Notes: generated by a model not told the origin, from the sequence alone. A DNA stretch of 36,374 nucleotides from Psammoneis japonica (GCA_008632985.1 QPGO01000378.1:1-36374), one strand, 5' to 3'. Positions 9,981 through 36,374 are shown, numbered from the stretch's first letter. Made by a program: numbers and translations.

Positions 9981-10157
9981 ATTGGTAGTGGAGGATGGTC
10001 AACTCGTGACGGAATTATAAAGCATCAACACCCGCAAAACATCGTGTCGTTGTTGCTACCGTGTTGTTGCGTTGGTTTCAGGTCTTTCCGTGATCGCTGT
10101 TCTTCGCGCGAAAAATGTGCGCGATAATTGGTCGTCTGGGTCAGGGTCAGCCCCCCC

Positions 10158-10834: not shown

Positions 10835-11052
10835 AGCATTCTGCTCACGTACTGTAGTAGTCACCGCAATTACAGGATGGCGTGCGCTTATTGGACTGCT
10901 CTCTACCGGGAGTTTTGTCCGGTGAGACTGCCTATCATTGTGACCTCTTCAGATGGTGTGGCAATTTGGAAGTCGAAGCTCTACCGTACATAGCAGGAAA
11001 TATGGAATTCGAATATGCAGAGCTATTCCAGTTCTCAACAACTAAGTTTATT

Positions 11053-11717: not shown

Positions 11718-11965
11718 CTGATGCGTCGTGAGTGCGAGCGAGAACCACCGCCATGGTGACTCCTCACTCCTCACTGCGTAGCACGAGCTCGATGAGAAAC
11801 TCGAGCTCCACAAAGAACTCGTGATTTTTGAAATATATTCATGAATATATACATAATACGGTTCGCAATGATTTTGGCGGGCAGCAATCACGCGCACAAC
11901 ACCCACACGCGCTGTTGCATCAACAACACAAGCAGTCTGTGTGGAGCTTCCATCAAAATTACATC

Positions 11966-13871
11966 ATGTCATTATCCAATCATCAGCATGATGATGATGA
12001 TTCGGTTCTCATGCCGCCGCCGCCTCCGAAACGACCGAGATCGAATTGTATTGTCGACGATAACGACGTTCGGCCGACCGCAATTACTCCACCCAATCGA
12101 AGCAGCAGCAATGACGATGATTCTTCCAGGAGGTTGATCCATCACGATAACAACGTTTTGTTTGATGATGGTTGTGCGGCATCGGGTTCGTTTGAGTTTC
12201 AGCACGACGACGACGACTTTTGTGATACTAACGACTCCTCGCATGAAGCAATGACGGAAAATGCTTTTGTCGGTGGTACGGAAAGCGTGTGTTGCTACAA
12301 TAACTTTGAAACCCGTCACGAGTTGCAACCAAACGAACGAGAGGAGGAACAAGAGTCTCGTTGTTGTTGTTGTTTTACGCCGACTAACGAAACTCCGTGG
12401 AACCCGTCATTACGACTCGCTTTCGAGATGTTGTCGGTCATGGAGCCGCAAAGCTACGAATCGATGAATTGCTCTTGCCGCTGGCGTTGCCACAGTCCGT
12501 GACGGAAACGGTTCTGACAGGTATATGACTTTTTGATTTTCGTTTTGGAATGCGTATTTTTGTTTGCTGCTGTGGTTTTTCTCATTTTGTTCTTTCCACG
12601 CCGCGTTGTTCTCTATTTCCGTTTTTATAGGAGTACGCGCGTTGCCAGCTTCTATTTTATTGTACGGTCCACCGGGATGTGGTAAAACACAGCTTGCTCG
12701 GGCTATTGCAGGTGAAGCGCAAGCCGCCTTTGTACAAGTGGGTCCGAGTGACGTTCTTTCCAAGTTTGTTGGAGAGTCGGAAGCATCGATTCGGCTCTTG
12801 TTCAAAACCGGTACGCGTATTGTCTCTTTTTGACTTTTTCTATATTTTTGAAGCTAGCATACTCACACTTGTCGTCTCGCTATTGATCTCTCGAGTAGCG
12901 TACGAACGCGCTCGCAACGTGGAGAGCCAATGCGCCATTTTGTTTTTTGACGAGATTGATGCTCTTGGGCAGTCGAGAGGTACCAGTAGTGAACCCACGG
13001 AAGCTCAATCAAGCTCCGATTCAAGTCCTTGTTCCCGTCAAGTACTAGCAGAGATGCTTATTCAGTTTACCAACCTCTCCAATGGCATGCTGGAAGAATT
13101 TGCTCTAGAAGAACTTCGTTCCAAAAATGCTGTTGCTCGCGGTGAATCAAACCATGACTCTGATGACTCGTGGACGGATCAAACCCCCGAGTGCTCGTCG
13201 CTACAGCAGCCTTCAACAAGACCGGTTCGACTCATTGTGGTTGCCGCAACGAACCGCCCGGACGATTGTGACGCTGCCTTGCTCCGTCGGTTTGGCATTC
13301 GAGTCTATGTGGGACTGCCATCGAAACGGGATCGTAAAAAGATTGTCGTGCGACTCCTCAAAGACATTGATCATGACATTTCGGCACCGCAGCTGGAACA
13401 GATTGCCGCTGAAACGCAAGATTGGTCGGGATCGGACTTGGAAGCTCTCACGCGGGAAGCTGCAAGTACGTATAATTTCATTTTGAATGATACACGTCGT
13501 TCTCTTTACTGCGGTTTTACTCACGCGTTTCTTGTCTATTTGTAGTGACCCCGGTACGAGAATGCCTTCGCTCTGCAGCACTGCTCAAAGCCAAGGTTCA
13601 CAAAAAAGAGGAACAACAGCGAGGTGGAGACGAATCGGCCCAAGAGCAGCAACCCGCGGCGGATGCACACGAACAAGCTAGCTCGCTGTTATTGCGGGGT
13701 TTTGAGAATTTGCGTCCCGTGAATTTACAAGATTTTGAACGGGCGGCCGAGTTTTTGCTTGGGACCCAAGATGCCCAGTCGCAGAGTAGCGGTGGTACGT
13801 TGGGATGCAAGAGATACAGCCAAGTTCACTACGATAGCTCTAGCAGCTCGGATGACGAAGGAGATGATTAG
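11966..13871 (+). CDS. AAA+ ATPase of the meiotic clade (spastin/katanin/fidgetin/Vps4-like); introns 12521-12630, 12811-12898, 13466-13545; apparent -1 frameshift at ~12390
   Basis: [21 protein letters not shown], Walker [13 protein letters not shown], pore loop LSKFVGESE, Walker B ILFFDEID, sensor VVAATNRP, Arg finger ALLRRF, WSGSDL..L.REAAM. All three introns are GT-AG and phase-compatible. Confidence 0.9.
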
Positions 13872-15600
13872 CGAGTATTGGGGCGCAAGTTCGCTACGAT
13901 GGTTCAAGCGGCGCTCAGATGACGACTGAAATGACTATGAGTAGCTAATGTAGCTCCTATGGTTTCGCCATTTGAATACAGGGGACGACCTGAACAAGTT
14001 TCAAATCCCGGTTCTATGAAGGCGGGTCGTTTTTGACCTGCAGCACGTGAACCAGGTGGCCTGGCGTCTAATGCCTGTCTAACAAAATATCGTACATATA
14101 GAAAGTGGAACCGTTTTTTTATAGCCCCCCCTACTGTAACTATTGTTTGAGAGCATTCTGACAGGTTATGTCGCTCTCCAAATCAAAATGGACACACAAC
14201 AGGTGGTCTTTCATTCAGCATGTGACCCATCAGATATGGAGTGCCTCGAGCCAAATTTGAAACAACTTGGTCCTCACCATGCGTCAACCGACATGCATGG
14301 GGAACGCCTTTGGAGTGTCAGGTCCAAAAAACCTCCACCTGGTGATGCATTTTGGGTTTTCCCAGCAAATGATCCACACTCAAATTTGAAATTCCAGATG
14401 CTTGGATTGATGGACTGGCTCAGTGCAAGTTCTACAAAAGATTCTTTGGACCGGGTGGGTCTAAAGACATCCCCAGGAAGTTGTGGCATGACCCATGACA
14501 GAGGAAGCCCATCCCTTGCTTTGCTTCATGTCTCTTCCTTCCTTTCAGCAGCATTCAAGCAAACAGGCTGCCAGTGCAGCAGCCACTGAGGACCAGAATG
14601 AAGTCAACCTGCCCACGTGGCTGCAAATGACTCAAATGGGGTGATGAGGAGTGAGTCACCTCCTTCCAAAAGACAAGATGCAGAAAAAAATGAGGCATCA
14701 TCACCTGCCACAGAGGAACCACAAGGGACATCTGGAAGCACTCCAGAGAAAAGCAGAAGAACAAGAGGCAGAAGAAAATGTGGAAGCTCCAAAAGATTGC
14801 ACCAAAAAAGTCATAACTCAAGAGACCACATTTCACAAGGAGGAGTTTGCATGCCCTTCTTGTGACACTGAAGGAGGAACACATTTTCTCCTTCAAGGAG
14901 GGTTGACCACAGGTCATGCACACACATGAAAGTTTGGTTGTGCAGCTGAATGTTCCTCATTGATGCCAGAAAAAATTGTGAAAAACTCAGCTGGGTGTCG
15001 TTTCACAAATCCTTTTGCCACATCTGATTGGCAAAGCTGCCAGCAGCTGAACAGCTCTGGCTGCCAATGCAAAATTCTGTTGGCTGTGAGGACAACAAAG
15101 AAGCTGGTGTGATTGGCAAAAGAAGATCATGCAGCATCCTTCTTGTGCAGAGCAGCTCTCTGTGTTCCAAGAAGACAGTTTGTTGCAGGGAGACCTGGTG
15201 CATTGGCACAGTGCTTTTAAACTGGTGCATGTGCTGCCTTGGAAGCCATTGTTTTGGTCTTCGTCTTGGTGGAATCTCTCACCATTTAGAGATGGCTCCA
15301 CCAACATGTCCAAGGCCCCAAGAAGCAAAGCCGTGAGGTTCACGTTGCACTTGGCAAAGCACAAGAGGAAGCTGGTGTGTGTTCTTCTTAGCAGATGAGA
15401 CAGAGATGATGAAGGCAAACGGCCGTGCTCTTTTTTCAACAAAGATGCATCAGATTGCATTGACTGTTGCTGGTTCCATGACACAAATCCCAGGAAAGTT
15501 TTTGCACTTCACACTCCACAAATGTGGCAACACATTTTGGTCATGGTTGCACATGCATCAGATGAAAGCTGACCTTTGTTGCAAGAACAAGCAATGCAAA

Positions 15601-15914
15601 TGAGGTGCGAGTGTGAATCTGATTGCCCAGAAAATGAGTGCAAACTTCATGAAAATTGAACATTCTGCACAACCAAAAAATTGGCATTGCAAAAGATTGG
15701 GAAAATGGAAAGCAGTGCATGCAGCAGACTTGAGAGTTGCACCGCCATCATGACTGCAATTGCCATTCCAAACACTCACAGCTTTTGACCACCATGAGGC
15801 TCTGACTGGACACGGCTGATGTGATGAGCTGTGCACAGTGAGGTGCGAGTGCAAGTCTGATTGCCCAGAAAATGTGCAAACATGATAAACATTGAACATT
15901 CTGCACAACTAAAA
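15601..15914 (+). repeat. ~75 bp imperfect direct repeat (15601-15678 and 15839-15914)
   Basis: tgaggtgcgagtg..tctgattgcccagaaaatg..gtgcaaac..attgaacattctgcacaac occurs twice. Confidence 0.85.
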
Positions 15915-16009
15915 GATCGCTCTAGTTGGCTCTGAAACAGATTTCATTTTAAGACAACCCCAGTCTGTGGAAAGAATGACTCGCCAGGTCCATCGTCTTG
16001 CTGACCACC

Positions 16010-16700
16010 TCACTTTTCTTTGTTGGTTGTCAATTTCTGAGCAAGATCTTCAACTGCGGGAGTCACCCAGTCTTCTTGATTCTTGACATCATGAACTCTC
16101 TGCATGTCGAGTGCAACAGCCTTGATTTGACTGTTGACATGACACACGCCCACATTCCGCCAAGCTGCATCACCACGACGAAAGCCATCACCTGCGAAGT
16201 CCTTCACCAATGTCTGCCTTGCCGCATCCAAAGTTGACAGAGTCCTTTCCGGAGACTGAAACCAGGGCATCAACAAGGCTGTTTGGCCCTTGTCTTGTAC
16301 AACCCGAATGGTTTTGGGTGCTGGTGGAAGATGTGAGTGCACAGCTTTCCACATTTCCTCTTCATGCTTTGCCTTCAGATCAGACTCTTGGAAAAAAAAC
16401 TTCAAAACTCCAACAGCTCCCTTTGTGCCACCCAACACAAGGAAAACTCCACCATCAGCACCACGCCCAAGATCTTCCCACAGAAAAAAATTCTTGACAG
16501 TGCCTGAAATGCACAAATCAAAGTTCAAACTGCTTTGTGGTGGAGCCTTTTTCCAAGCAGAGCTCTTTTCATTGGCCAAGCACAGCACCATCATTGCACC
16601 TTCTTGCTTGGCAAGCATCATCTTTTTCACAACAGATGCAAACACAACTGCACCTGCCACGCCAGTTTGAAGTTGCTCAAGGCCTGGGTCTCACAGCAGT
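16010..16700 (-). pseudogene. Degenerate protein-kinase-like gene (Crinkler-type / DUF5898-like family, tentative)
   Basis: Gly-loop DLGRGADGGVFLV, VGVLKFF, HEEEMW, ALLMPWF, catalytic-loop-like GDAAWRNVG, VALDM. Homologous to 31608-32231. Family name is from recall only. Confidence 0.6.
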
Positions 16701-18082
16701 GTGTCGTGCATCATGGCTTGGGGGCACTGGAGCATGCTTCGGGCAACTTGGCACAATCACTCCATCCAAAAATGCTTTGTCAGGTCCCCTTCTCTGAATT
16801 CAAGCACAAGTCCTGTCATTCCCAGAAGCCCTTTCTCTTCTCTTTTGATTGCTTGTGGGTGCTGCATTGGGCACACTTCTTTTTTCAATGCAAGGTGGCT
16901 TGTTGCACTCCACCAGTTTCCCAAGGTGTGCTTGAGCAGGGTGAGCTCTTTTTCCACTTTCTCAGTGCTCTCAATGCATTTGATGGTGGAGTTGCAGAAG
17001 ATGCTCACATTGTTGTTGTTGTTTTTGGAAAGAACAGTTTTCATTGTGTGAAATCTGCAACTTGCTCTGCAATGCCATGTTGACAACACATGTGTGCAGG
17101 TGCTTCGTGCGCATGGATTGGGACAAGACTAAAAGAAAGGTTGCAACATCATGCCACTGTTTCTAAAAGTGAGATCTAAACCTGAGGAACTGCTCGGTGC
17201 CCAATCGCCAATGACAAAGCATGCCAAACTAACTTGAATTGATCACAGGGTAAATTCTTCAGTCTCCTCAAGTCGATGAATTGGACAATGTCAGAAATCT
17301 CTTTTTGCATTTGCCAACAGAACATCTGGTCAGAAATGCAAAATTCTTGACTGTGATGATGAAGCTGGTGTTGTCATGTTGGTTTTTTGAGCAGCAGATG
17401 TTCTCAGCACACCTGCAGCTGCAGCCGCCCCAGAGATCGTGCATCACTTTGACATGGAACAGCTCTCTGTGCTCCAAAATGACACAGTTTGTTTTTGAGG
17501 AAACCTGGCATCCTGGCAGCTGTGCACCATTCAAACCATCACAGAAGCCGCGGCCTCCTTTGCCAGGAGCCCGCACAACTGATGACACAGAAAATCAACA
17601 GGAGTGCAGGTGCTGCTTGCCTGTTGTTGCTTTGGCAGACATGGATGAGATGCACTGTGTCTGTTGGAGAACAAACTGTTTGATGATGAAGTGTGGGAAT
17701 TGTCTGGTGAGGCATTTTCTCTGTGTTTCTGGCGGCGCCAAAAGAGCTTCTGGAGCATGCCAGATTGGTGGCCCAAATGTGCTCTTGTGTGACACCAAAT
17801 TCATGGATGTTTGAAATGCAGGTTGGCTGGTCATGACATGCGGACATGCAAGTGCAAAGGTTGTGCAATGATGGCCTGAACAAAGAACATGGGAAAAGAT
17901 GTTGTGCATTTTGTTAAAAACTCTGCAGGTTTCACATGAACAAACATTTCATCAGACACATCTTTTCACTGAATTGCCGGATTTCACTTGAACTTGTGTG
18001 TGGAAGTCATTGTCTGATTTTGGTGACATCACAGAGGGCTTTTTGTCTCATTGCTCCTGAACTGATGTTCACAGGAAAGAAG

Positions 18083-18265
18083 ACTTGTGCAGACTTGTTG
18101 TGCTGGGTTGCACGAACTTGCACGAACTTGCATGGACTTTTTCACACTCAGGTGATTTGGTCACAAAAGCATGCACAAACTTGCATGAAAAACATGTGCC
18201 AACCTGCGCGAACTTGCTTGAGCTTGTGTGGGCTTGCGCAGATCACTTGCACAAACTTTTGCATG
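18083..18265 (+). repeat. Degenerate 10-bp tandem repeat (ttgcacgaac-like)
   Basis: ttgcacgaac ttgcacgaac ttgcatggac ... atgcacaaac ttgcatgaaa ... ctgcgcgaac ttgcttgagc ttgtgtgggc ttgcgcagat. Confidence 0.7.
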
Positions 18266-20303
18266 ACATTGCCCACCATGGCTGCTGTCATCATCACATT
18301 CGGTGACTGGCCACATTGAAGAAGGACATTTGATCAACAAATGAAATCCAGCAACTGATGAAGTGCAAAAACTTAGACATTTTCATTGTTTGAAGGAGAC
18401 GATGTCACTCGTTGTCACCCGGCAAGTGACAACAAGAACAACAAACAACAGTTGCCAGTTGACATGTGTGCTTTCATCATCTTGGTGTCAACTCCACATG
18501 CAATCATGAAAAATTGAGTGACAGCATTTGTTGCATTCTTGTTTTGAGCAAGAAAGCATTTGCCAAAATGATGCACATGTTTGAAAGTTCGTGCTCCTAA
18601 TTTCACACACACAAGCAGCCAAAAGCCAAGAGTGTGGCTTCAGCATTGCCACTTCTGATAGAGCTGGTCACAATGTGTTGTTTCTGACATTGACAAGGAA
18701 GCTGGTTTCTTTGTGGCCCATGTTCAATTGAAGCCTGTGCAGGCCCTGGGGATCTCCTCAAAGAAGTTTCTTTTTCAGACAGCGCAGAGACACATGACCA
18801 CCAAAGGTGGGGGGCACTTGCTGTTTTTGCAGTCATGAACAAAAACGTCTGCTTGCACATGTTTTTTGCTTTGTTGATGGTGAAGATGGGCATGATTGGG
18901 GAGCCTCACTCTGTGCCTTGGTCACCCCATTTCCAGAGCTTGGCGTTTGACGCAACATGGCAGAATCTTTTGAAAAATCATGCACCTTCGAGGGACGGGC
19001 AGGCTCTCTGTTTTTTGGAGCAAGTCGGGAGCAGGAATGGCCCATCTCACTTGGAAGCACACATTTTGCTCTCCAGGGGAGGGGGGGCTTGCTGCAATCA
19101 TGCTTGTCATCAGGTGAAAGATGCCAAGACAGACCCATGCTTCTGCTGAAGTGGAAGAAAGCCCCTCTTCTTCAATGTCAGAAATCACAAAAAAAGACTG
19201 AGCTGGGCTCTGTTTCACAACTTCTCTTGCATCTGATTGACAAAGCCACCAACAGCTTGCCTGGTCACAAGCAAAACATTCTTGACTCTGTGTGGGAGTT
19301 GGCAGCATTGCCAGGTTTGTCTGTGGTTTTGGGCATGTTCTCAGCAATGTTCTTGTGGCTGGCTGCAACCCTGGAGCCAATTCAGTGCCTTGCCATGGAG
19401 CAGCTCCATGTGTTCCAAGAGTGCAGCTTGTTTTCACAGAAACATGACATCCCATGCATCATTGCTTCAAGTCAGCATGGTTTGCCACTGGCCGCCATCA
19501 CACCAAAATGGTGAGGAAACCAGGGGACGAGGCACCAGCAGCTCACGCAAAGAAACATCCAACAGCGTTGGACCAGGCACTTCATGACAGAGTGAGTGTC
19601 AACGGGAATGTGGGCACCACCACTTGCCCACAGTTGCTTTGACTGGTGTGAATGAGACATGCTGTGTCTGATGAAACATGCAGGTGGGATGTTGTTTTCT
19701 GTCTGCCCTCTCACAAAGAAGTCAGAAGCGCAACCACCAAGTGCAGGAGCTTTGGCACCGCCATTCCCAATGGAGTTGGGCAACATGCTGTTTCCAATTT
19801 GAAAAGGAAATTGGTTTCTTTGTCACCTGTGTGATCAAAGCCTGTGCACATCTCTGCCCCCAAAGTGTTCTCAAGGTTTTGCATCGCCACACATGCCAGC
19901 ACCACATGACCATGAGAGAGGAGGAGGACAGCGTGCCCCCAGAGACACCAAAGGTGGAATCCACTCACTGTTTGTGATCATCCACATTGTTTCTGTTCCC
20001 AAACATTCTTCACTTTCTCAATGCCGAAGATGGGCATGACTGGGGAGTTGGACTGCACGCCCTTGTTCTCGAAGTACGACAGTGCAGCTTGGCAGCTTGG
20101 CACTTGAAAAACCACGCACCTCCGCCCGATGATGTTTCGGCGATTGAGTCGTCGGGAACGGCCCATCACCTGGACAATGTTGTGACATACTGTAGTAGCC
20201 GTTCAGAGAGAAGCCACGTAGAAATAGTACTGCAACGAAAGTAGAGCGTCCGTCCGTTGCGTCGTTCACGCAAAGATCCCCAAGATCGCGAAAAACCACG
20301 CAC

Positions 20304-21057
20304 GAGTGGCGTACTTTCCAAAAGTGCGGTGCGCAGTACTCGTCTACATACGGACAAATAGCACTAGACTCTACGCACCGAACACAACAAGATTTCACTC
20401 ATTACGACAACAGCAGGGAAGTCTATCATGTCGGGTATATCGACGTTATTGCGCTTCTTGCGTATAAAAAATACATCAATCCACTAATATTACGCATGCG
20501 AATTGGATGGGATACAGGATCTTGCAAATCTGGTGAAAAAATCGTCCCCCCGTGCTTCACCGTGTTAAAAACCCCGTGCTAATCCTCCATAAAATGAATG
20601 AAAATCCAACTTTTCGTCAAAATCTGTTGTCGCGTGCTCACTTCAGTGCTTCATCAATGCGATCGACCGAGAAAACACAAAATACACCCCAAAAAAAGTG
20701 AAAAACAACAGTCCCACCGCGGCCAAAACCTCTACGTGATTTCAGTACCAAGTTGTACGTGCCAAAAACCCTTCGTCACCAATGGCTCAACCAGCTCCCA
20801 AAACAACTCGATCATTGTCATTTGACATTGATATCTCATTTCTTATCATATCAGTTGTTGTCTCGGTGCATCATAACCTCCCAGTCCGCTGTCGTTGTTG
20901 TGTGCGTCCATTGCCGATGTCGCGGCGTCGTTGCCGTGATGTTTGTGTGTGAAGTGAATTCAAATAAACATCTCTACGAATTTTGTAGTACATTTTTACG
21001 TACGTATATTTTGTGTAGATTAGGTATGCGCACCGAATTTTTGAAAGTACGCCACTC
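20304..21057. repeat. Imperfect ~45 bp inverted repeat pair (20304-20348 and 21014-21057)
   Basis: The reverse complement of 20304-20348 (tgtagacgagtactgcgcaccgcacttttggaaagtacgccactc) aligns to tgtagattaggtatgcgcaccgaatttttgaaagtacgccactc. Confidence 0.75.
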
Positions 21058-21182
21058 CATGGCGAAGACACAACACAGATGATGTCAAGGAATGCATGCG
21101 TCGATAAGTTGCACCGCGTCATTGCTATTGTAAATTGCCAAACGTTAACTGCCTGTAGAGACGGCCTGTGGTAAGAAGTAAA

Positions 21183-24100: not shown

Positions 24101-24943
24101 AAGGAGTTGTATCAGGCAGGCAGTGACAAGAAACCTGAAGGTTTTGTCCCAATAAGGAAGAGACCTTCAGAAGCAAAGGATATCGAGAGCAAGCCAAAAT
24201 CGGCAAGTAAAAAGAAGGTTCAGCCACTTGGATCGGACGACAAGTCCGTACAGCAGGTTGGCGAAAAGGATAGGAGCACAGCAACAGAAGCGCGGATTCC
24301 GAAGGCAGCTGCAGCAATTGAATCACCAGGTTCCCCAGCAGTGTCTCGGGTGACGAGCCAGAACACCTTGGATTCGCCAGATAAGGCGAGCCGCCCACCG
24401 GCAAAACCAGAAAGAAAAGCGTTTTCTCTTAATCATTTGATGCGTCCGAAAGGTGACTCGGCTAGCAATGCATCGCGTGGTAGTGCATCTGCCCAGGTTA
24501 ATGGCAGCGCTGGCAAAAGTAGTGTATCTGCCGAGGTTAATGGCAGCGCCGGCAAAAACGGCGGAAAAAACAGAACGGCAGAGGGTCCACCGATATGGTT
24601 GAGGACAGCACCTGTACACGACGACTCCGGTTCGGCGCTCAAAGGAGATAGGGGATTTGCATTGGAATTCCTCCAGACAGCTGCGTGTAAGTTTCCAGAG
24701 GGAGCGGTCGATGTGGAATCAGCAGCAAAATCATTAGAAGATGCCGTTTTCAAATGGTCAAAGACTCGAGGTAAGGATGATTGGAAAGAGCCCTACTGGG
24801 AAAAGGTACATTCCCTCGTTGCTGCAATATGCGGAAAGAAGGAGACGGGGTCGCTAGTGAAAGAAATACTATCTGGGAGGTACCAGTCAGCAAGCGACGT
24901 AGTTTCAGCCTCCGACGACATACTAAAGCGCTCGTTTGGATGA
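21183..24943 (+). CDS. Large nuclear chromatin/transcription-type protein: K-rich repeats, PWWP-like domain, acidic 20-aa repeats, TFIIS-like C-terminal domains; intron 22575-22664; apparent -1 frameshift at ~23722
   Basis: ORF 21168-23954 joins 23894-24943 when one A is restored in aagaaacac. The 90-nt in-frame GTGAGT..CCAG intron has a gctaaac branch point. VGFAKWSGDYLPVLFLSPY...LVYWYG is PWWP-like; SAAKSLEDAVFKW...YWEKVHSLVAAI is TFIIS-central-like. Confidence 0.75.
22980..23550 (+). repeat. Coding tandem repeat, 60-nt unit (20 aa, DEELVSSDDEPSPKKGSKK), about 9 copies
   Basis: Exact 60-nt periodicity is visible at 23200-23540, with looser copies upstream. Confidence 0.92.
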
Positions 24944-26049
24944 TAGAAATGTCAGGGTGCCCCATTGATTTGAATGTATCTCTTCTATCTTTTGGGGTGT
25001 AGTGTCGTTTGTGTTTGTAGACATGGCGCCTATGATGACGAAAAGGAGGTGGCGCTGAAGAGAAGGATGAAGCTGCCGAAGAAAGCGTAGGCTCTGGATA
25101 GGATGGTGAGTGCACCATTGATTTCATCGAGTCCGTCTGCGAGCGACAATCGTCAGAAACAGTTATCTTTTTCAAACGATGTATTCATCACCCGCGGGGT
25201 TTCAGATGAAAAAGCCCCTGCAATACATGCCGACCCTTCTGTTCGCTTTACTCCGCGTCATCAAAACACACACTCGCACATAGATATATAATCTGACTAG
25301 ATACCAGTTTTCTTAAATTACTCATCAGTGATTTTCTTCGATCTTTCATGACAGTACAGGGGTGTTGTGAAAAGAAGATCACCCGCATCACACAGCACAC
25401 TCTTATTGCGGTCTTGTGGCACATCGTCCTCGAAGATCGAAATATCACCACTAGATTGCATTCCACTTCCGAAAACGTAGCTCTCCAACAAAAAGGATAC
25501 TTCATCCCATATTACTGTCGTTGTCACCATTAACTCACTTTATGAATGCTCGGTCGTCGTCACCTAAACCAGCTAGCTAGCGCGACCCTTGTTGTTCGAA
25601 GTCCTTTGCTCGTCGCGCTTCTTCTGCTCTGTTATGGGTAAGGCCAAGGCTTCATCGTATGTACTTGTAGCCATTACCAACTGAAGAGCAGTTTTTATTG
25701 CAATTTGATGATTGAAAGGAGGTCCGTCTACTCCTAGATGATTCATGGCGGTGGTCCCATTACGTGTTGTACTAATGGCAGATCTGGCTACTTCAACCTG
25801 AGCTCTGGATGCTTGAGTAGTCCGTGATGCCTGGACAGATTCAACCAAGTCTCCACGGCACGGATCGAACGAGACTCAGAGTTCAATCGACCCATCACTT
25901 CAAATTCTCACTTTTTATTTTTGCTGAAGTTTTCGTCGAGCATGCCAAAACCTAGAAACTAGCATGAGCGACAGACTGATGCAATGTGTCAAGGCGCATC
26001 TATTGATTCTGTCGCACGAGGTTTGCATCTTCAAACTGCAAAGCAGAAG

Positions 26050-27450
26050 CTAGTCCTGAGTTAAGGTGTGGCCGAAAATAATGCTTTCCATGACATGCCA
26101 GCTGCGATGTCGCATCAAAGCCACATGCCGACCTTCGCGTGCCATTTTCGTTCTTGTGTCTTCATCCACATGCCAAAGATAGTGCTCGACTTTTTGAATC
26201 AAATCATCGACACTGCTATACATAACAAGGTTGACGCCATCCTCCAATCCTTCTGGGACGGAGAGCATCCGGTCCGCGAAGACCAAGGCACCGCTGACCA
26301 AAGCCTCCATCAGACGATAATGCCCTTCCCAAAGGTCTTTCTGGGCCTCGACGACGATTTTGGCTTGGAGTAAACCTTTCGCGTAGTCGCACTGCGCTGT
26401 GTGCCGTCCTTTCAAATTGGCCAACCCTGCTAGTCCCGCCCACCCCGTTGCATTCGGTGTCCTTGCATTCCACTCATTGATAATACGGCAGCTCACGTTG
26501 TCACGCAGGTGAGAGTTTTTCATTTTCCCACCACGGTCGACTCCTCTGCCATGGCATGGCCAGAAGTGTGCCACATCCACAGGCCGATATAACATGTATG
26601 ACAGGTCAGCAGTGGAAGCCACTACCGACTCCGCTCCACGTCTTTCTGGCACAATGAACTCTGGATGCTCCTGAAGAACAATGTCCATCGCCTCAAGCAT
26701 GTCGCTTCGAACAGCATAATGAAGTTTTTGGATTGGCGTGGTCGACCACAAAGAATAGTTGTGTTGAAGAAGTTGGTAATTCATGCTTCCAATCTCGATG
26801 CGCTTTATGGATTCATTCCAGTGCCGTCCAGTCACTACACTTCGCTTAAAGTATCGTACCTCCTCGAACGAATCGTACAACTCTGGACAATGCTGATATT
26901 CGACAGATGGCATATCTGGACTGTCTCGCCAATCCAGGACATATATGGACCAAGGTAGCAGGACTGTTTGACTGCCTCTTGCAGTTGTTTTCTGATTTGA
27001 TATCACCCTAGTAGCTTTCTTTACCGCCACCAAAAGATCCTTACACCAGTACATAAACCGACCTTGACTAGCATCTGCTATCCATATCACCTTACTAAAC
27101 ATTTTTGCCTCTTCTATCCGACTCACACGATGAATGTACTTCGATCGCTCTACACCATCAATGGTAAAGTGTCTCATTTCGTGTAAAGATTCATTGGCCA
27201 ACACGTTGGGCCACAAAAAGACAGGAACCGGTGATGTGTAGGCGGTCGTTGTCGACATTGGTTGGAATGACAGAATCTTTTCGATCGACACAGGACTAAA
27301 GCGCCAAAATTGCATAGTCATCAGACACACAACCAGCATCGTCGTCACCAATATACGGAACAATCTTGAGAAGTAAGCAGACCGCAACTTTTCGTCCTCG
27401 GTAGTATGTGATGATCTTCGGGGACGGCGTGCATCGTTCCTTCTTGTCAT
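26050..27450 (-). CDS. Type II membrane glycosyltransferase-like protein (GT-B, Glyco_trans_1_2/CgeB-like C-terminus)
   Basis: Intact 466 aa ORF with an N-terminal TM helix (ILVTTMLVVCLMTM). C-terminal Y...LLQAKIVVEAQKDLWEGHYRLMEALVSGALVFAD...LEDGVNLVMY.S..DL...V.HYL...R..MAREG. Confidence 0.8.
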   Translation of the reverse strand: MTRRNDARRPRRSSHTTEDEKLRSAYFSRLFRILVTTMLVVCLMTMQFWRFSPVSIEKILSFQPMSTTTAYTSPVPVFLWPNVLANESLHEMRHFTIDGVERSKYIHRVSRIEEAKMFSKVIWIADASQGRFMYWCKDLLVAVKKATRVISNQKTTARGSQTVLLPWSIYVLDWRDSPDMPSVEYQHCPELYDSFEEVRYFKRSVVTGRHWNESIKRIEIGSMNYQLLQHNYSLWSTTPIQKLHYAVRSDMLEAMDIVLQEHPEFIVPERRGAESVVASTADLSYMLYRPVDVAHFWPCHGRGVDRGGKMKNSHLRDNVSCRIINEWNARTPNATGWAGLAGLANLKGRHTAQCDYAKGLLQAKIVVEAQKDLWEGHYRLMEALVSGALVFADRMLSVPEGLEDGVNLVMYSSVDDLIQKVEHYLWHVDEDTRTKMAREGRHVALMRHRSWHVMESIIFGHTLTQD

Positions 27451-28677
27451 GATGAGTCAAACGACGAACCGTACGAGTTCTCAGTTCCTAGTCACCATAG
27501 CTATTGTAGTCGGTTTCCTTCGCAAAGTAACAGACTCATGAAGGATATAGCTTCAAAACTGGTTGAATGTGCTCACCCAGTTCATCAGCATTGACCAACA
27601 CAGCAATGTCTGCCCATGCATGGTGGTGTGGAAATGCCGCCTCTTAGACTCCACTTGTGGGGGTTGTGGGTGCACAGGCTCGTGGTGCCATGCATGGTGT
27701 GGCTCTCGGTTGCCAGTCCCTGAACTGGAGAGTGCAATTTGAAGCTTTCTCCATTGCCACAAAACAATGCTGACTGCACAAGTGCCCTTTTGTGGATGAG
27801 TCTAAATCATTGCCACTAAAAGCCATGTCAAATGGTGGCTGCACAAAGTCACACATGTGATGGGAAATCTCAAACCCATCTTCCACCTGATCTCCTTCAT
27901 CACATGAGAGAAATCACTTTGTTTTAATTCAACAACACATTTGTTGCAACATGCCCTTTGATGAGTGGATTTGCCATCAAACAAAGTTGTGATCTCATGT
28001 GTTGTTTGTGGGTGCACTTGAAGGTGTTCCTTTGTCTTGATCCATTTTTGCTTCAAACAAGAGAAGATCATTGACCAGCACATGTGAGAGTTGAATCTCT
28101 CACTCAGCTTTCAGTGCATTTCAATTCTCCCTTGAAGCATTCTGGAGCCCATGGAAAAGGTGTCCTCACCTGTCCCACTGGCAGCAACAATGTGTTTTCA
28201 TGTTGCAGTTGTTTTGACATGGTGCACATTCTTGTTTGAGCTCCTCCACACAACATCCCAACTCCCTGCACCCCACAGCCCACACCAGCAGCCCCACATG
28301 CCTGCCCAAAACTCTGAAAATTGATGGTCGATGTTGTTGCAGCTGCTTGCAGCGGACACAAGAACCAAGCCCAACTTGGACTTTGTGGACCCGGTGGAAC
28401 TCAAAGAAGACACCAGCAGGTGAAGCATCCTGCTTGAAATGTTCCTTCTCACAATGGAGGTTGTCCATGCCCTTGTTGAAGCACAAATGTTGGGCAATCT
28501 TGACCTGGGAGGTTGCAAGATCATGCCAAAGGGCATTTTCAGTGGCAGCCAAGGAAAGTGCCCTCCATGGAGCTGGGGCACAACTCAGCGCAGCAGTGGA
28601 TGGGTTTGTGAACCCAAACATGACAACCAATCACAGCCTTCACAGTGGCAAAGGCAATGTGGGCTGTGCCTTGATCC

Positions 28678-30500
28678 ATGGACACAACAGAGGCAGCAGC
28701 ACCTCTGCAAGACATGCTGGTGGCTGCAGTGAGCAATGCAGGCCCAGATGAGTCAGCACATGACACCATGACAAGTTTGTCAACATGTGCCAATGTGGGG
28801 TTGGCATTTGGTGCTGCAAGGGGCACTGCTGCCAGAGTGGTCACATGCGGCACAGCCTTGGATGCAACAGGCACAGCCATGCCTGCAGAAGACATGCTTG
28901 CATGTCCACAGCAGTCAATGCAGGTTCCAACAAGGAACCATGTGCCACCATGACAAGATTGTCAGTGGCACGGACTGATGAAGGAGTTGCGCTCTTTGTC
29001 AAATGGGGCACAAGCACTTGGTCAGTCACATGCTGCACATTTTTGGATGCATGAGATGTGAGAACATCTCCACAATGCCTGCTTGGTGTTGCACATGGCA
29101 GCACAGGACTTGACGGGTTGGTGCACAAGTCCATGACAAGGTCAGATGTGGGCAGCAATGGGGAGGGAAGATTTGTTGAAGAGCCTCAAGGTCAGCAAAC
29201 AACACTCTAAGGACCTTGACAAGCTCAGCGAGGTGCTCAAGGAGAACCTTGATCACCTGCAAGTCCATGAGTGTGGTTGCATTGACACCAAGTTTTGTGT
29301 TTTTGATTCTCACATCATTTCTTCTCAAATCATGCATTGTGCACACACAGAAGTTGGCAGTTAGCCATGGTGGCACAAGTGGAGAAAGAGAAGCCATCGA
29401 GGGTGTCTCTGCCTTTTTGAACAGTGATGATGAGCACCGCCAAGAGCTTGCATGTGAGCCCAAAAGCACAACCATGATTTGTGCACATTCTTTGCCAACA
29501 AAAAGGACAATGCCAAGGCACCTTGCATTCATGGCATTGCCCCGTGAACAAGAAAAAGAAGCAAGCTGAGATTGTGCTTCAAGGGATGGCAAATGTGTCA
29601 CTCAAGAATGCCTGGTGAGATTGGTCCAGCAACTTCAAAGCAGCATGGAAGGGCAAGAGTCTGATGAGGAGTCTCTAAAACAGGAAAAGGTTGAGCAGTG
29701 GGGGCACTCTTGCAGAGTCCAATTCATTCTTCTTGTGTGACAGAGACAGGAGTCAAATCCTGACACTGATGCAGAAAAGAATGATGATGTCATCAACAGC
29801 GCCTTTTTGTGCCAGGGCTTGATCCAAGTCCTTCTTGGCTCTTGAAAGAGCAAGATGAGGCCCATTGACAAGATTGTTCAGGAAGACATCAAGCCGCTTG
29901 TGCAACTGGGTTTCTGGCAAGTCTTGCATGAGTTGAAAAAAATCAAAGTCATTGTCTGCTTTCTAACCAAGATTGCAGATTGTGCATCAGTGGTCACTCA
30001 TTGGGTGGTGTGATTGCAACACTGTTTGGATTCTGCATGGCTGCAGATCCAGACCTTGCCAAAGAAGGGCCCATCATGGTTTGCACATTTGCAGTGCCTC
30101 GTGTCAGTGATGCTGCCTTTCATGAAGGTGCCTTTTTGTCCTGGACTGAGATTTCAAGCATGCAAGTGCAGGGGAGTTGCACCTCTCATGCTTGACTTTT
30201 TTCTCTTTTGCAGTCCCTCAACTGCCCTGGCCAGCCGGACTTCACAAACATGATGGCATGGAGGTGCGACTTTGAAAGGATGGACCTCCCGTTGTGGATT
30301 GTCCAGTCAAATGCTCTTGGCAACAATCTGGCTCAGGGGTCATGAAAAGCATTGCCTCAATGCCACAAGCCTTGATGTGTCATTCCTGCAAAGAAATGCT
30401 GAAACGATTCAAGAAGTCCAAGGACGCTTTTCTCAAATCGACACTGGAGCACAAATGCCGTTCCATGAGCGGAATTTTAACGTGTCGAGAAGACGGACCC
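28678..30500 (+). pseudogene. Class-3 lipase (Lipase_3, alpha/beta hydrolase) pseudogene
   Basis: CISGHSLGGVIATLFGFC...VCTFAVPRVSDAAF (GHSLGG nucleophile elbow; the family has YTFxxPRVG). At ~29525-29595, CIHGIA.VNKKKKQAEIVLQGM matches the family's YGI.VN...KR..VVFRG(S/T). Multiple stops and frameshifts; ends approximate. Confidence 0.8.
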
Positions 30501-30533
30501 AAAAGAATGCACTGTTGACACTAAAAACATCAA

Positions 30534-31031
30534 CCCTTCAACCACCAGGGGAGCAAATCTCCACGGGTGGAGATTTGCTCTGCTTGAGGATTTGTGGTGT
30601 GTCATGCACTTTTACAACAACACAATGTGCACAGCACAAAAATGTCATGCCACGTAGAATCTGCGTAAAGTGTGCCACGTGCATTTGCTTGTTGGGAGCA
30701 AATCTCCACCGGTGGAGATTTGCTCAAAGGGTGTGGTGTTAAAGCTCTGTTTGAGACAGCAATTCATGATGACCTCCATTGTCATAGGTTGAGATTTAGT
30801 TCCTCTCTATCCACAGATGCAGCTTGCAAAAAACCCGGTGTTAAAAGTCGACATTGAACTTTCTAAATTAAAAAAAGGGTTCCCCCAGGTTCTTGGCGAA
30901 TGCACATTCCAAAACAAAATCGCGCGAACAAAATGTCACTCACATCTGAAATTACTTGTTTTGCTGTGTTTGTGATGCAAGGGAGCAAATCTCCACCCAT
31001 GGAGATTTGCTCAAGTCCGGTGGTTGAAGGG
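30534..31031. mobile_element. Non-autonomous piggyBac-like MITE (~500 bp) with TCAA flanks and three internal 30-bp palindromes
   Basis: TIRs CCCTTCAACCACC (30534-30546) and GGTGGTTGAAGGG (31019-31031). TCAA flanks both ends (30530-30533, 31032-31035). GAGCAAATCTCCAC-NN-RTGGAGATTTGCTC occurs at 30551-30580, 30696-30725 and 30983-31012. Confidence 0.8.
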
Positions 31032-31607
31032 TCAAGAGTGCTTGTGTGTTCACGATTGGCGCTCACAAGCTCTCGCGCCAGGCCAAATCAAATCGTGTGA
31101 AAAGTGGGAAATTGGGAGCTGGTGGCTGTCCTTTCAGTGATTTGCACAATCGTTGTGTGCTGGAGTGCACTGAGGAAACATTCCAATTGGGCTGCGCACG
31201 CTGCAGGCCAAATGAGTTCTTGTGCAAAGCCTGTGCGTGCTTGCAAGTGCAACTTGCGGCTTCCACACAGAAGTGAGGAGAGCCCCAAACACACTTTTTC
31301 TCAATTGAGACTTCCTGAATGGAGTCTGACTCCATTGAGTGCAGCACACAGAAGCTTTTACAACCTCGCTGTTTTGCCGTTCATGGGGATTGCAAAGACT
31401 GCAAAGCGAGTGAATTGCATTTACAAGAAAATGACAAATGTCCATGCTGGAAGGCACAGGGAAGCAACACGAAGTGAAACAATGCAATTCTACAATCTAA
31501 GAGAGCACCTCCACAGAGACAGTCTTCTAGCTGAAGAGCATGCTTCTCTCATCATGAACAATGCAGCCTTTGCTGGCGGCTCCACACTTGCACAGCATCG
31601 TCCTCAC

Positions 31608-33200
31608 CTACGACCCCTCCACAAAAGGCAACTTCTCAGAGTCACATGGGACTTCCTGGGCATTGAGAGGTTTGCTCTCTTGTTGGACTTCCCGTGGAGC
31701 ACGATCTTCTAATTTGCGGCAGCGCTCCTCCACAAACGAATCATTTTCCGCCTGCTCCAAGTTGCCAAGATCACAAAGGACGCAATTTTCCTTGTGGGTC
31801 CCGATGTGATGCCATCGGATGTCCTCCTCTTTGTGCTTCAATCGCTTTGCATGGAACACATCCTTTAGCACCTTCCTGATGTCGGGCAGCTGATCCCTGC
31901 AGCCACTGGCACTCGTTGCCATGGGTTCAAATGACGGCATTTTGACACAGCAAAAGCCAAAGACATTTGTGACTTCCACCTCATCTGCTAAAAATGGGTG
32001 GAAATCGCAAAGCAGCTTCGCCTCATGCAAAGTTGCACCTTCTGCCTTCTCCTTGAACTCGTTCCATCCCACAGTGTCACCTGTGGTGACGTCTGCATTG
32101 TTGACATGCACCTTCAATGCGACTTGCTTGCCACTCAAATCCAACGCATGGAAGATGTTAGAGGTTGTGCCATGTCCAACGATCCCGATGACATGGAATG
32201 CTGCATCATCATCTTTGTCCACCAGCTGCACTTTGGAGCTCGTTGAGAGAGCAGCATCTCTGGGTCAACTTTTCCGGCTCTCCATCTTGTCACCTGGTCT
32301 GACAAACAGATCCCCCCACAGGCATTTCTTCACTGCAGTTTTCGATGTGGCCGAGGAGCTTTTGTTCAGCACTCGCAGCACTTTTGGAAAGCAGCAGTTT
32401 CCATTGGACTTGAGCTTCAACATGCTCCGCATGGACTCTCTGCAACTCTTCTTAGCAATTCTCAGAGCAGTGCAGACAAGCTTTGCAAGCTCATGAGACT
32501 CGAGCTCCTTGGATTGCAACATCTCTCGGCCTCCAGTTCCCTTTGTGAATAAATTCCTGAAATCCGCCCCACTGGCGTTCGAACCCGGGGATGAGTCGCA
32601 GGAGACGGGTGGCACCATGGGCAGTTCCGCATTCTCCCAGGACAAGTTGGACTGCCGGGGCGGCGACGATTGCGGTTGATTGCGATCTTGCTTGATGATT
32701 GTGGCTGCGGGCTGGCAGGTGCTTCTTCTCCATCTCTTCCATCATTTGTTTCTTCATCGAACTTAAGTTCTTCCAGAGAGCATGGAATGGACTTCTCAAA
32801 TGCAGTGAGAAGGACGAGCCCATTTCCTTCTTGTCCAAACACATCATCAGAGTGCACGAAATGTTAAAAATGTGCAGATTTGCATGATGACAATTTGTCA
32901 AAATGTTGCAAAACATTGTTGTCATGTGATGAAAGGCCAACCTCTGGTTGCAAGTCAGCTGTGCCAATGTTGCAACAACTCACCAAGAATCATGCATGCC
33001 ATTTTTCACTGCACCCACATCACTGTGTCTGCCTCCACCTTGTTGCCACATGCCAATGCGTGATTGCATTTCCACACAATCCTTGGTTTGTTGATTTTCG
33101 CAAACATTGTTTTAAACGAGAAGAGCATTTCGTCGGTTGGGTCAATCCCTTGTTGCATCTGCAGTGCAATGACCGAGTGCCATGTAAACTGTGCACACAT
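31608..33200 (-). pseudogene. Degenerate protein-kinase-like gene (same family as 16010-16700)
   Basis: VIGIVGHGTTSNIFHAL...VALKVHV...HEAKLL...VKMPSFEP...EEDIRWHHIG..CVLCDLG, with upstream fragments in other frames (SHELAKLVCTAL, FPKVLRV). The 5' limit is approximate. Confidence 0.65.
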
Positions 33201-34441
33201 TTTCTTGCTGCAACTCTCTTAAACTGAGCCAACGATCATCATCGGACTCGTCTCCATCGGACTCGTTTCCTCTGTCATCCGTTTTGCCTTTTGTGCCTTC
33301 CTCCTGCTCATCGTCGTTGCTGTTGTTGTCCCTGCTGCTCTCCACCATTGGGCTGTTCATTGCCTTCACCTTGTCCGTGTCACCGGTCGGTGCTTTCTTT
33401 TTCTTCTTTTTTGCTTCTCCGGACTTCTTGCACTTGCTTTTCTTGATCTCCGCATGCCACTTTTCAAACTCCTTGCCCTCCTTGGAGTCTCTGTCTTTCG
33501 TCACCTCTTCACACAAATCGTTGAAAAGATTGATTCCGTCGTCTCCCCAAGACACTCGTTGTTTCTTTGGTTTCATGCACCGAGGGGCAGGCCTTGTTTC
33601 TTTGGGCTCCATTTCCTCACCCAATTCTTCCACCGCCTCCTCCTTGTTCCTGTGTGCCCACACCTGCCAACAATTCTCCATGGCCAACAGCACCAAAGCT
33701 TCGTCACCGACCGTAAACAACTGTGAGACCTTTGCATTCCCAGTTTTGACGGTGCTGCTCCGTGCCTGCTTTTGCTTGGTTTGAGGCAGGATGTGATCAC
33801 AGAACCACTTGTGTGCCTGCTTGTTCCTTCGTTTACCGCCGGTGACAGTGTCCAGGCTAAACGGATCCCATGTCGGCACAAACGGGATGTCATTCTCTTC
33901 ACTCTTGTCACAGCTTGACTTTTTCCTCTTTTTCCTCCTGTCTGCCGCCTTGAGTTTCTTTTCTTTTTCCTTTCCCTCTTCCTCAGTGACAACGCCTGCA
34001 TGGACAAAGCATCACCGTCATCTTCTTGTGAGACACGCGCAACTCTCGAATCACACACATTGGTCACTTGACTTGCGGGCCATTGCCTCCGCCCCAATGG
34101 CCGAACACACCGTGTTTCCGCGATTGTCAATTTGCCTTTTTACCGCCTTTTTTGCCCATTCCTCCCAAGTTCCTGACCAATTTGAAGTGTCCATGTTGCC
34201 ACCAGCAGATCTGTTTCTTGACAAAACATTGAGACGCTCCATTGCTTGCCAATTCTGATGGACTGAGAAAATTCACCTGTGGAAAGAGATCATTTCCAGC
34301 CACCTTCTCTGCTTCTGATTTCAATGCACCATGTGCTGCCTGCGCACCTGTTCTCTTCAACACTGCCTGAAGTCTCGGGCTCATTGGCTCAACAGTCTCA
34401 TTTTTCTTTCTCTTCTTTGCCGGTTGTGCTGGAGACGACAT
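33142..34441 (-). pseudogene. Degenerate repeat-associated ORF (TxxDEAxxLLxxEN family; possible DNA-transposon accessory gene)
   Basis: WFCDHILP...FTVGDEALVLLAMENCWQVW...WGDDGINLFNDLCEEVTKDR...FE. I recall this motif pattern from multicopy diatom ORFs. Upstream fragments include LFPQVNFL. The transposon link is inference. Confidence 0.5.
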
Positions 34442-35066
34442 CTTGATCTTTTCACGGCAACAGTGAGAGGAGTGGCACTGTTCGACAGTGCAACCGTCAT
34501 TTGGGTCGTGTTGAGACAGCCAGCCACTCTATTTTTCTCTGTGACATTGCACAAACCATTGTCAGCAACATTGAAATTTGAAAACACATTTGTGCACAAC
34601 AATGAACAGCCCAACTTGCTTTTTGACATGGCTGTCATTGCATTTCAACGGAGACAATGTCCTGCATTTTGATGGTGAATAAAAAGCACAACATTCATTG
34701 TGGATGCCAGATAAAAAATCAAAATGCAGGTGCGTGACACCCACAAGAATCATCCCAATCTGGAAGACAATGCAATGTTTGCCAATTTCCCGCCATTTTT
34801 TGTGTGTTGTTCTTTTTTTCCCTTCTCATCCACAAGACAAGGACACGAGCATGAGTCTTGATGAAGGCCCTGTCAATGTTGTCTGATTTGCAATGGACGG
34901 AAACCCTCTTCTCTGTCCCAGTTGTGGCCAAAGTTTTTTGCAAATGGCCTGCCATTGGAGATGCTCACCGACGTGTTGCGCAGTTGCCCAAGAGTTGCAA
35001 ACCCAAGATCCAATCCCAGATCAAAGCAACATTCCTGCCACAACAGAGGGGCCACCCAAAGAAAGC

Positions 35067-35807
35067 NNNNNNNNNNNNNNNNNNNNNNNNNNNNNNNNNN
35101 NNNNNNNNNNNNNNNNNNNNNNNNNNNNNNNNNNNNNNNNNNNNNNNNNNNNNNNNNNNNNNNNNNNNNNNNNNNNNNNNNNNNNNNNNNNNNNNNNNNN
35201 NNNNNNNNNNNNNNNNNNNNNNNNNNNNNNNNNNNNNNNNNNNNNNNNNNNNNNNNNNNNNNNNNNNNNNNNNNNNNNNNNNNNNNNNNNNNNNNNNNNN
35301 NNNNNNNNNNNNNNNNNNNNNNNNNNNNNNNNNNNNNNNNNNNNNNNNNNNNNNNNNNNNNNNNNNNNNNNNNNNNNNNNNNNNNNNNNNNNNNNNNNNN
35401 NNNNNNNNNNNNNNNNNNNNNNNNNNNNNNNNNNNNNNNNNNNNNNNNNNNNNNNNNNNNNNNNNNNNNNNNNNNNNNNNNNNNNNNNNNNNNNNNNNNN
35501 NNNNNNNNNNNNNNNNNNNNNNNNNNNNNNNNNNNNNNNNNNNNNNNNNNNNNNNNNNNNNNNNNNNNNNNNNNNNNNNNNNNNNNNNNNNNNNNNNNNN
35601 NNNNNNNNNNNNNNNNNNNNNNNNNNNNNNNNNNNNNNNNNNNNNNNNNNNNNNNNNNNNNNNNNNNNNNNNNNNNNNNNNNNNNNNNNNNNNNNNNNNN
35701 NNNNNNNNNNNNNNNNNNNNNNNNNNNNNNNNNNNNNNNNNNNNNNNNNNNNNNNNNNNNNNNNNNNNNNNNNNNNNNNNNNNNNNNNNNNNNNNNNNNN
35801 NNNNNNN
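35067..35807. other. Assembly gap (N run)
   Basis: 741 N bases. Confidence 1.
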
Positions 35808-36374
35808 AGTGGCAGGCGCAGTTACGAAGACGGACACTGACCCGGAGAAACAATTTCTAGTGCAATGTCATTTACCTCGACAAGACTGGCAGGACACAAG
35901 GGATGGGATCATGTTTGCGGAGAGCCAGTGATCATGACCTCTGCACATGTTGCCTTCAACAAATGGTCAGACAAGAGTGTCTGGAAACCAATTGTTGTCT
36001 CCCGGATTTGGAAAAGATGTCGTCATCTGCGGCAAAGAATCTCTCAACAATCAAGGCAGAGAAGGGACGCTCATTGACAAGAGACCACACACTTGCTTGC
36101 GTGTCATTTTGGAGCCACTTTTGGAAGTCATGAGAAAAGGAGGCATGAAAACATGCGTGCAACGAGGGGATGAGATGCGACACTCCACGCAATTCCACTG
36201 ATCGTTCTCGATCATAGGAGATGCAAAAAGCGGCAACTGTCTCGTCGGACGATGCGGAGTCACAACTGTCTCACGTTGCTGTCGTTTTTGCCTGGTGGCT
36301 TCAACAACTGGACGAACCCATGGATTGAATGCGAGTTTGTCCGAGGACTGGATCTCCACCAAGTGCAAACTAAG

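Follow-up and report, generated by a model that had tools for sequence, protein, structure and literature searches.

Repeat-induced point mutation (RIP), as known from Neurospora and other ascomycetes, is triggered by duplication and converts C:G to T:A at CpA; such context-specific transitions saturate stretches of DNA and kill genes, with sharp edges beside intact neighbors. Hardly any natural case is known in which nuclear DNA undergoes targeted A:T to G:C mutation, and enzymes of the TadA/ADAT2 kind naturally act on an adenine that has U before it and C after it. A full-text literature search returned one description of such a process, a preprint on a single alga by Mettrop et al. (bioRxiv 10.64898/2026.01.13.699255), and nothing for diatoms or other stramenopiles, as judged by titles and the openings of abstracts. 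That preprint reports on mutation-accumulation lines of Bigelowiella natans, where A>G and T>C account for 230 of the 231 mutations in two regions of integrated viral DNA; these changes were all at TpA, arising de novo at about 6e-7 per site per generation. It proposes adenine deamination, names an ADAT2-like candidate, cites DNA editing by ADAT2, and finds low-TpA genes enriched in transposon domains. Here we analyze a window of 36,374 bases from Psammoneis japonica (GCA_008632985.1 QPGO01000378.1:1-36374; "the window" is this whole stretch), in which two blocks of several kilobases have lost nearly all TpA (TA) dinucleotides and gained CpA (CA) and TpG (TG).

The process seen here adds a case to a kind for which one 2026 preprint is the only description found, and its imprint here is far more complete. 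As far as the available preprint text describes them, the two cases share A>G or T>C change at TpA on either strand, confinement to particular regions, and low TpA combined with high CpA+TpG. In B. natans the process was measured in mutation-accumulation lines, whereas here it is read from the sequence. The main targets there were an insertion of a nucleocytoplasmic large DNA virus (NCLDV) and one of a virophage with a moderate depletion (Rho TpA 0.45), whereas here the observed/expected ratio (o/e) of 0.05-0.09 is near saturation and the targets, in which no viral or transposon domain was found, include host-type pseudogenes. The coupling with CpG loss and the flanking-base rule seen here are not mentioned in the preprint text available, where "CpG", "flanking" and "trinucleotide" each occur 0 times and diatoms are not named. 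The original prediction, made for this DNA from the sequence alone, had said that no such pathway was known to be described in diatoms; no diatom report was found, but TpA-only hypermutation has been published for B. natans.

The comparison with RIP shows a likeness in outcome and an opposite chemistry. RIP creates TpA, whereas here TpA is destroyed and CpA/TpG created, so that instead of raised TpA with lowered CpA/TpG we find TpA nearly absent and CpA/TpG at o/e 1.65-1.78. RIP also depends on duplication, whereas here single-copy DNA is erased and two young multi-copy elements are spared, copies of at least 80% identity being counted.

Composition and edges of the erased blocks

Dinucleotides were counted in sliding 600-base steps across the window, which has a run of N at 35067-35807. 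The two blocks and the gene-bearing DNA around them have the following counts, with o/e in brackets.

14145..20050: block B, second block with the identical signature by dinucleotide counts; TA 22 (0.05), CG 75 (0.23), CA 658 (1.77), TG 647 (1.78)
27553..36374: block D, flagged in the original prediction; it extends to the window end and is made up, as a mosaic, of low-copy, single-copy and very high-copy DNA; TA 50 (0.09), CG 198 (0.42), CA 844 (1.67), TG 830 (1.65)
1-14144: gene-bearing DNA; TA 553 (0.58), CG 896 (1.10), CA 952 (1.08), TG 1021 (1.16)
20051-27552: gene-bearing DNA; TA 290 (0.55), CG 418 (1.04), CA 536 (1.03), TG 473 (1.17)

These ratios confirm the near-absence of TpA first claimed for 27553-36374 and 14145-20050, and the hand counts given with that claim were exact (0 TA and 4 CG in 28441-29040; 32 TA and 24 CG in 26641-27240). 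The remaining 12 dinucleotides differ little between blocks and genes: AA has an o/e of 1.22 and 1.24 in the blocks against 1.17 and 1.14 in normal DNA, and AT 0.81 and 0.87 against 0.93 and 0.88. Since the blocks show no depletion of AA, TT or AT, the loss is specific to TpA. At normal-DNA rates, the expectation for blocks B and D is 234 and 303 TA (Poisson P 2.8e-71 and 1.5e-72) and 353 and 512 CG, against 75 and 198 CG seen, and they hold 1305 and 1674 CA+TG where 815 and 1116 are expected. Among 1000 base shuffles the minimum TA was 364 and 438, against the 22 and 45 observed in that comparison. The TA count per 600 bp has a median of 3 in the blocks and a minimum of 10 in normal DNA. The edges are sharp to within <30-100 bp, dense TA reaching as far as 14141 and 27548 and being back from 20075/20188.

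Balance between lost and gained dinucleotides

Relative to normal-DNA rates, blocks B and D lack 490 and 566 TA+CG and carry 490 and 558 extra CA+TG, respectively. When the purine/pyrimidine flank classes are summed, sources amount to 1020.9 and sinks to 1024.4, and the strand skew (TG-CA)/(TG+CA) is -0.008 in each block and within ±0.10 in all nine sub-segments. Because transitions keep the flank class and sources nearly equal sinks, nearly all of the missing TA and CG can be accounted for by one transition each to CA or TG, with both strands affected equally.

Decay of 5-methylcytosine (5mC) explains the CpG>TpG/CpA half of this signature and cannot remove TpA. Its signature is present in the CG o/e of 0.23 and 0.42, and, as had been proposed, 5mC deamination accounts for this part, 13 of the 26 CG of a relative (see below) now being CA or TG. 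The depth of the CG loss varies along block D, where CG stands at 0.11 of the normal rate in 27553-30000, 0.51 in 31036-35066 and 0.73 in 35808-36374; TA stays at 0.09-0.25 of its normal rate while CG varies over 0.11-0.73. Within 32677-35066, for instance, 12 TA remain where 91 are expected (0.13) and 72 CG where 140 are expected (0.51). In eight of the nine sub-segments a larger share of TA than of CG has gone. Since TA loss exceeds CG loss and the two are uncoupled in degree, the TA process is separate from CpG decay and faster than it; the two are coupled in space, not in rate. The statement that neither RIP nor CpG decay can remove TpA is upheld on both counts, the pattern being opposite to RIP and the TA loss going beyond the CG loss.

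Direction of change in a DUF5898 pseudogene

The direction of change can be read from a gene remnant in block B.

16013..16690, minus strand: C-terminal fragment of a DUF5898 (kinase-like) gene, a pseudogene (Pfam PF19250, E 3.4e-11)

Its open reading frame (ORF) has 213 homologues with a top identity of 63%, and the remnant matches just the final ~210 residues of relatives that are 430-650 aa long. In a protein alignment with 13 homologues of E<1e-30, both conserved Tyr columns are changed in the pseudogene, Y118 to His (CAC) and Y183 to Cys (TGT). Mismatches occur at 25 of 120 well-conserved columns, and 19 of the 25 are single-step changes; six of these 19 (seven with one ambiguous case) are TpA>CpA/TpG, including four changes of Val GTA to Ala GCA, and four are CpG decay.

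A codon alignment to the nearest environmental locus (L001; 441 of 618 bases identical) gave the same direction at the DNA level. None of the 20 TA of L001 is kept in the window, 9 having become TG and 5 CA, so that 14 of 20 follow TpA->CpA/TpG. Four of its 26 CG are kept, with 7 now CA and 6 TG, and the other dinucleotides are kept at 38-78% (AA 58%). A metagenome scan yielded 15 loci encoding DUF5898 relatives, and the gene TA o/e is 0.31-0.77 in all 15; the family is therefore not inherently TA-poor. No TA erasure was seen in the flanks of these 15 environmental loci, and IMG/VR yielded no viral relative of this gene. An ORF-level self-comparison gave no pair of erased and unerased paralogues within the window.

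Gene remnants and repeats in block D

Block D contains a lipase remnant, a kinase-like ORF and a very high-copy repeat, listed here.

29932..30192, plus strand: class-3 lipase fragment with GHSLGG (Pfam PF01764, Lipase_3, E 9.9e-11)
31611..32264, minus strand: Tyr-free kinase-like ORF, single-copy by contig depth (50-52 against a baseline of ~59)
32677..34000: very high-copy repeat, TA-erased with about half of its CG kept; summed contig depth 16.8-18.4 thousand against ~59
33145..34011, minus strand: repeat ORF of 289 codons within the 32677-34000 repeat, without homologue or Pfam family

Three-frame translations place stops and frame changes on either side of the lipase fragment. The Cys of its DCRL is aligned to the Tyr of DYRV in fungal (Thermomyces-type) lipase chains, solved lipase structures being distant (best E 9e-4). 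The features assigned to the ORF at 31611-32264 by the Atlas language model are APH/Kdo/Pkinase-like clusters (0.97), and it is a remote relative of DUF5898, to whose profile it aligns weakly (hhalign probability 61%, E 7.8e-5); in this weak alignment both invariant Tyr columns of the profile face His (DFHPF, IGTH). The Tyr->His/Cys examples first given for block D thus fare unevenly: DFHPF stands, at an invariant Tyr column of a weak alignment (61%), and CISG, VCTF and VLCDLG are not supported, the homologues seen having V, F or I at these sites. A word-based search gave no homologue of the kinase-like ORF or the repeat ORF, and none of the lipase fragment with longer targets; no homologue was thus available to set beside KVHV, IHGI, ENCW, DLCEEV and KWHAE.

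The Pfam scan covered 201 block ORFs, namely those of at least 70 aa in both blocks and, in block D, those of 35-69 aa as well. Only DUF5898 and Lipase_3 reached the curated Pfam score, and none of the 201 ORFs matched a Pfam domain of viral or transposon type; the 156 block D ORFs of at least 35 aa gave no match to a reverse transcriptase, integrase or transposase. The blocks consist in part of high-copy repeats of no recognized kind.

As a separate observation, a 1096-base contig of a second contig set (X2; depth 201) matches the lipase region at 29542-30477 in three pieces of ~85% identity with skips between them, and this contig may represent a paralogous, perhaps intact, lipase gene. X2 contigs cover the genes at 20004-25339 and scarcely the blocks, and they were not used as expression evidence.

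Read-derived contigs and copy number

One public run (X1), which contains 72% of the sampled words, was compared with the window through its Logan contigs, matched at a likeness of at least 80%. The run is possibly the assembly's own sample, and its contigs are still a separate read-level reconstruction. They show 11 differences over 14001-16690 and one over 31020-32872, an agreement of ~99.6-99.9%, and they span the edges at 14145 (record 1, reaching 3.8 kb further upstream), 20050 (record 3) and 27553 (record 6, 23414-27626), with equal depth (~59) in blocks and genes. Because the bases are reproduced and three edges bridged, the erased blocks are not an assembly artifact, and these contigs speak against the concern that reads might not support the assembled bases. 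Among the differences listed, which cover 40 of 816 places, 7 lie in block B against X1 record 1, and these include five CpG/CpA alternations and one TpA/TpG. At position 14815 the window has TA and X1 has TG, in DNA where TA makes up ~1% of bases. This suggests that the CpG and TpA processes are recent or ongoing, or that haplotypes or strains differ.

Contig depth also served as a measure of copy number, counting copies of at least 80% identity, so that older copies would escape it. The segments distinguished in this way are as follows.

14001-16001: single-copy, depth 60-76, erased
17336-20003: single-copy, depth 58-77, erased
31343-32676: single-copy, depth 50-52, erased
16669-17335: multi-copy, depth 695, erased
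30009-31342: multi-copy, depth 1465-3969, mixed, including the TA-keeping island
32677-34000: multi-copy, depth 16.8-18.4 thousand, erased
20305..21058: multi-copy segment of ~754 bases with ordinary TA and CG; depth 860-1450 against ~59, TA 15-28 per 600 bp
30531..31035: TA-keeping, multi-copy island in block D; TA 11 against 22 expected, depth 1465-3969

The segment at 20305-21058 adjoins block B and is missing from one X1 contig, in which 14 other bases stand between 20304 and 21059; none of its ORFs has a Pfam family. It is probably a young polymorphic insertion. The island at 30531-31035 carries a 30-nt palindrome three times (30551-30580, 30696-30725 and 30983-31012), with 14-base arms around a 2-base center, the arms being perfect in two copies and having one mismatch in the third; the arms give 6 matches where 0.08 are expected. 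The island looks like a hairpin-bounded miniature element. The original prediction had called the process repeat-targeted. This holds insofar as multi-copy parts are erased, but single-copy parts are erased as well and two young multi-copy insertions are spared. Erased single-copy and spared multi-copy DNA together indicate that copy number alone does not decide, so that something else, be it age, size or domain state, must play a part.

Flanking-base preference

The flanks were analyzed with the island at 30531-31035 left out, which leaves 61 surviving TA. YTAR makes up 38 of these 61 (62%) against 141 of 843 (17%) in normal DNA (odds ratio 8.2, P 4e-14), and RTAY 2 of 61 against 245 of 843; the survivors are mainly CTAA/TTAG (26) and TTAA (9). 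Loss of TA thus depends on the flanking bases, and the pattern fits either a rule of A followed by a pyrimidine or one of a purine before TA. The flank classes of the products favor A followed by a pyrimidine, YTGY+RCAR having gained 347 and RTGR+YCAY 173. A 16-bin regression likewise favors TAY>TGY, with a TA-loss coefficient a of 1.33 (95% CI 0.44-2.53) and an asymmetry that does not depend on CG loss (b = -0.61, CI -1.54 to 0.30).

Proposed mechanism and alternative explanations

We consider it probable that TpA>TpG/CpA hypermutation acted in place and was directed to domains, likely through DNA adenine deamination, on top of a 5mC-type CpG decay. Two chromosomal domains, probably silenced and CpG-methylated, would have been mutated from A:T to G:C specifically at TpA, a hit on the top-strand A giving TpG and one on the bottom-strand A giving CpA, with both strands hit equally and to near saturation. 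CpG decay would run alongside at a slower pace, and both self-complementary pyrimidine-purine steps would in this way funnel into CA/TG. Tyr codons would become Cys or His codons, genes or mobile elements in the domain would be killed, RTAY would be almost wholly erased and YTAR would mostly survive. The contiguity of erased single-copy and multi-copy parts argues for action in situ across the whole domain. As for the chemistry, the likeliest route would be that a TadA/ADAT2-like enzyme, recruited to the domain, deaminates adenines in the DNA and that the resulting hypoxanthine is read as G; TadA base editors and ADAT2 offer a likeness in that A>I is read as A>G, and their U-A-C substrate context resembles the suggested T-A-pyrimidine preference. 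A second, A:T->G:C process at TpA, as originally proposed, is borne out by the mass balance, the DUF5898 pseudogene and the read-derived contigs.

Several points weigh against this reading. The direction of change comes mainly from one pseudogene in block B, block D contributing a weak profile alignment and one lipase position. Methylation and silencing are read from the CpG loss. The sharp edges are no less compatible with targeting bounded by elements, or with mutation that preceded insertion, than with spreading chromatin. The flank tests conflict, four of the 10 informative L001 sites fitting TAY and six RTA; CTAG, although a YTAR site, is unprotected, with 3 left against 56 in normal DNA; and a pyrimidine precedes two inferred Tyr>His changes.

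The same TpA process could start from a lesion of thymine instead, made by a TET/JBP-type dioxygenase or another T-modifying enzyme, for example if 5-hydroxymethyluracil mispaired with G or were misrepaired to give T>C. TpA being self-complementary, T>C on one strand is A>G on the other, and the dinucleotide, L001 and flank data fit this route equally well; in dinoflagellate DNA, moreover, hydroxymethyluracil lies preferentially at TpA and TpC. We know of no T-modifying enzyme or modified T of this type in the present lineage, nothing in the data speaks for the route specifically, and TpC is not depleted in the blocks (o/e 0.98 and 1.04 against 1.14 and 1.24), which leaves it unlikely. Error-prone repair would tie the two losses together: T:G mismatches derived from 5mC would recruit mismatch repair and a polymerase-eta-like enzyme that miscopies WA. 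The A>G errors of polymerase eta fall at WA, TA being the hottest motif, and the enzyme acts in the second phase of antibody somatic hypermutation, and TA and CG loss do share the same blocks here. Such an enzyme should mutate AA too, but AA/TT is unchanged or higher in the blocks (o/e 1.22-1.29 against 1.14-1.20), AA is kept at 58% relative to L001 where TA is kept at 0%, and TA loss is as deep where half of the CG remains (32677-35066) as where CG is gone. CpG, moreover, has 0 occurrences in the text available from the B. natans preprint, and taken together these data make a repair origin very unlikely.

It is equally hard to credit that RNA, cDNA or extrachromosomal intermediates were edited by ADAR/APOBEC-like enzymes and inserted already free of TA. 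The edges sharp within 30-100 bp and the TA-poor state of this copy of the ~300-copy repeat at 32677-34000 would suit such a history, as would the preference of ADAR for a 5' U. Editing of this kind predicts an excess of TG or CA on one strand, ADAR-type hyperediting being one-strand A>G in retroelements, but each block shows a skew of -0.008 and none of the 9 sub-segments exceeds ±0.10, and the DUF5898 coding strand has both TG (9) and CA (5). The blocks also contain single-copy fragments of host-type genes (lipase, kinase-like), block D shows no reverse transcriptase, integrase or transposase domain in its 156 ORFs of at least 35 aa, and the search for a viral relative of DUF5898 found none. 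That there was no mutation process at all, the blocks being foreign or oddly composed DNA or an artifact of assembly or base calling at modified bases, is extremely improbable. The N gap at 35067-35807 and a read support that comes from contigs only leave some room for it. Against it, conserved Tyr and Val codons are altered as TA>CA/TG predicts, TA content is ordinary in all 15 relatives, the remnants of the lipase and of DUF5898 are disrupted or cut short, and k-mer contigs of a public run agree at ~99.6-99.9% and span the edges at equal depth. A persistent inosine should, in addition, yield a mixture of TA and TG and not a clean base.

Domain-directed TpA hypermutation in place could be taken a step further, though only tentatively. 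A DNA adenine deaminase that is guided to domains and prefers T-A-pyrimidine would be a genome defense that is RIP-like and chemically opposite to RIP, and would erase whole silenced domains in place, with any host gene fragments in them, faster than 5mC decay; the same signature in a chlorarachniophyte and in an unrelated alga suggests that it might be an old, widespread and so far unnoticed eukaryotic defense. A second, unrelated genome would show that the process is no one-species curiosity, that kilobase domains can lose every TA faster than methylated CpG decays, and that anything in such a domain is hit, beyond viruses. TA o/e together with the CA+TG excess could serve as a simple genome-wide marker of silenced or invaded DNA. 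For annotation, Tyr-free, Cys/His-rich "ORFs" and long frames with TGA as the only stop in such blocks should be regarded as products of mutation. The signature also points to a candidate natural DNA adenine deaminase with a defined context, which would be of interest for base editing.

Neighboring genes in normal DNA

The normal DNA of the window carries two HSP20 genes, CDC45, a proteasome subunit, sedlin, an AAA ATPase and a glycosyltransferase-like gene, the last being the closest to block D. For the CDC45 exon, the nearest named Atlas cluster is dominated by haptophytes (0.93), a weak hint at lineage.

26053..27456, minus strand: glycosyltransferase-like gene, apparently intact, with a 468-codon frame (Pfam PF13524, E 1.1e-12)

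About 100 bp separate the start of this gene from the edge of block D, and its composition is untouched (TA o/e 0.54-0.72).

An old duplicate in normal DNA, 7995-8272 / 10584-10834, has 77-83% identity; its substitution spectrum is mixed, and no TA-specific spectrum was seen between the two copies. It includes a 10-base stretch, CTATATTAGA in one copy and CCACACTGGA in the other, in which three consecutive TA face CA, CA and TG.

The frame of 931 codons at 21159-23951 (plus strand) has no Pfam family and encodes a Lys/Glu/Ser-rich product; it combines a strong A-excess (AT skew up to 0.43) with ordinary TA and contains 60-base (20-codon) tandem repeats at 22978-23591 and 126-base units at 21588-22257. 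The two HSP20/alpha-crystallin genes, at 269-964 and 2685-3581 (both on the plus strand), are 1.7 kb apart and share 49.5% identity over 105 residues, and 3397-3489 / 4056-4150 form a further short repeat pair.

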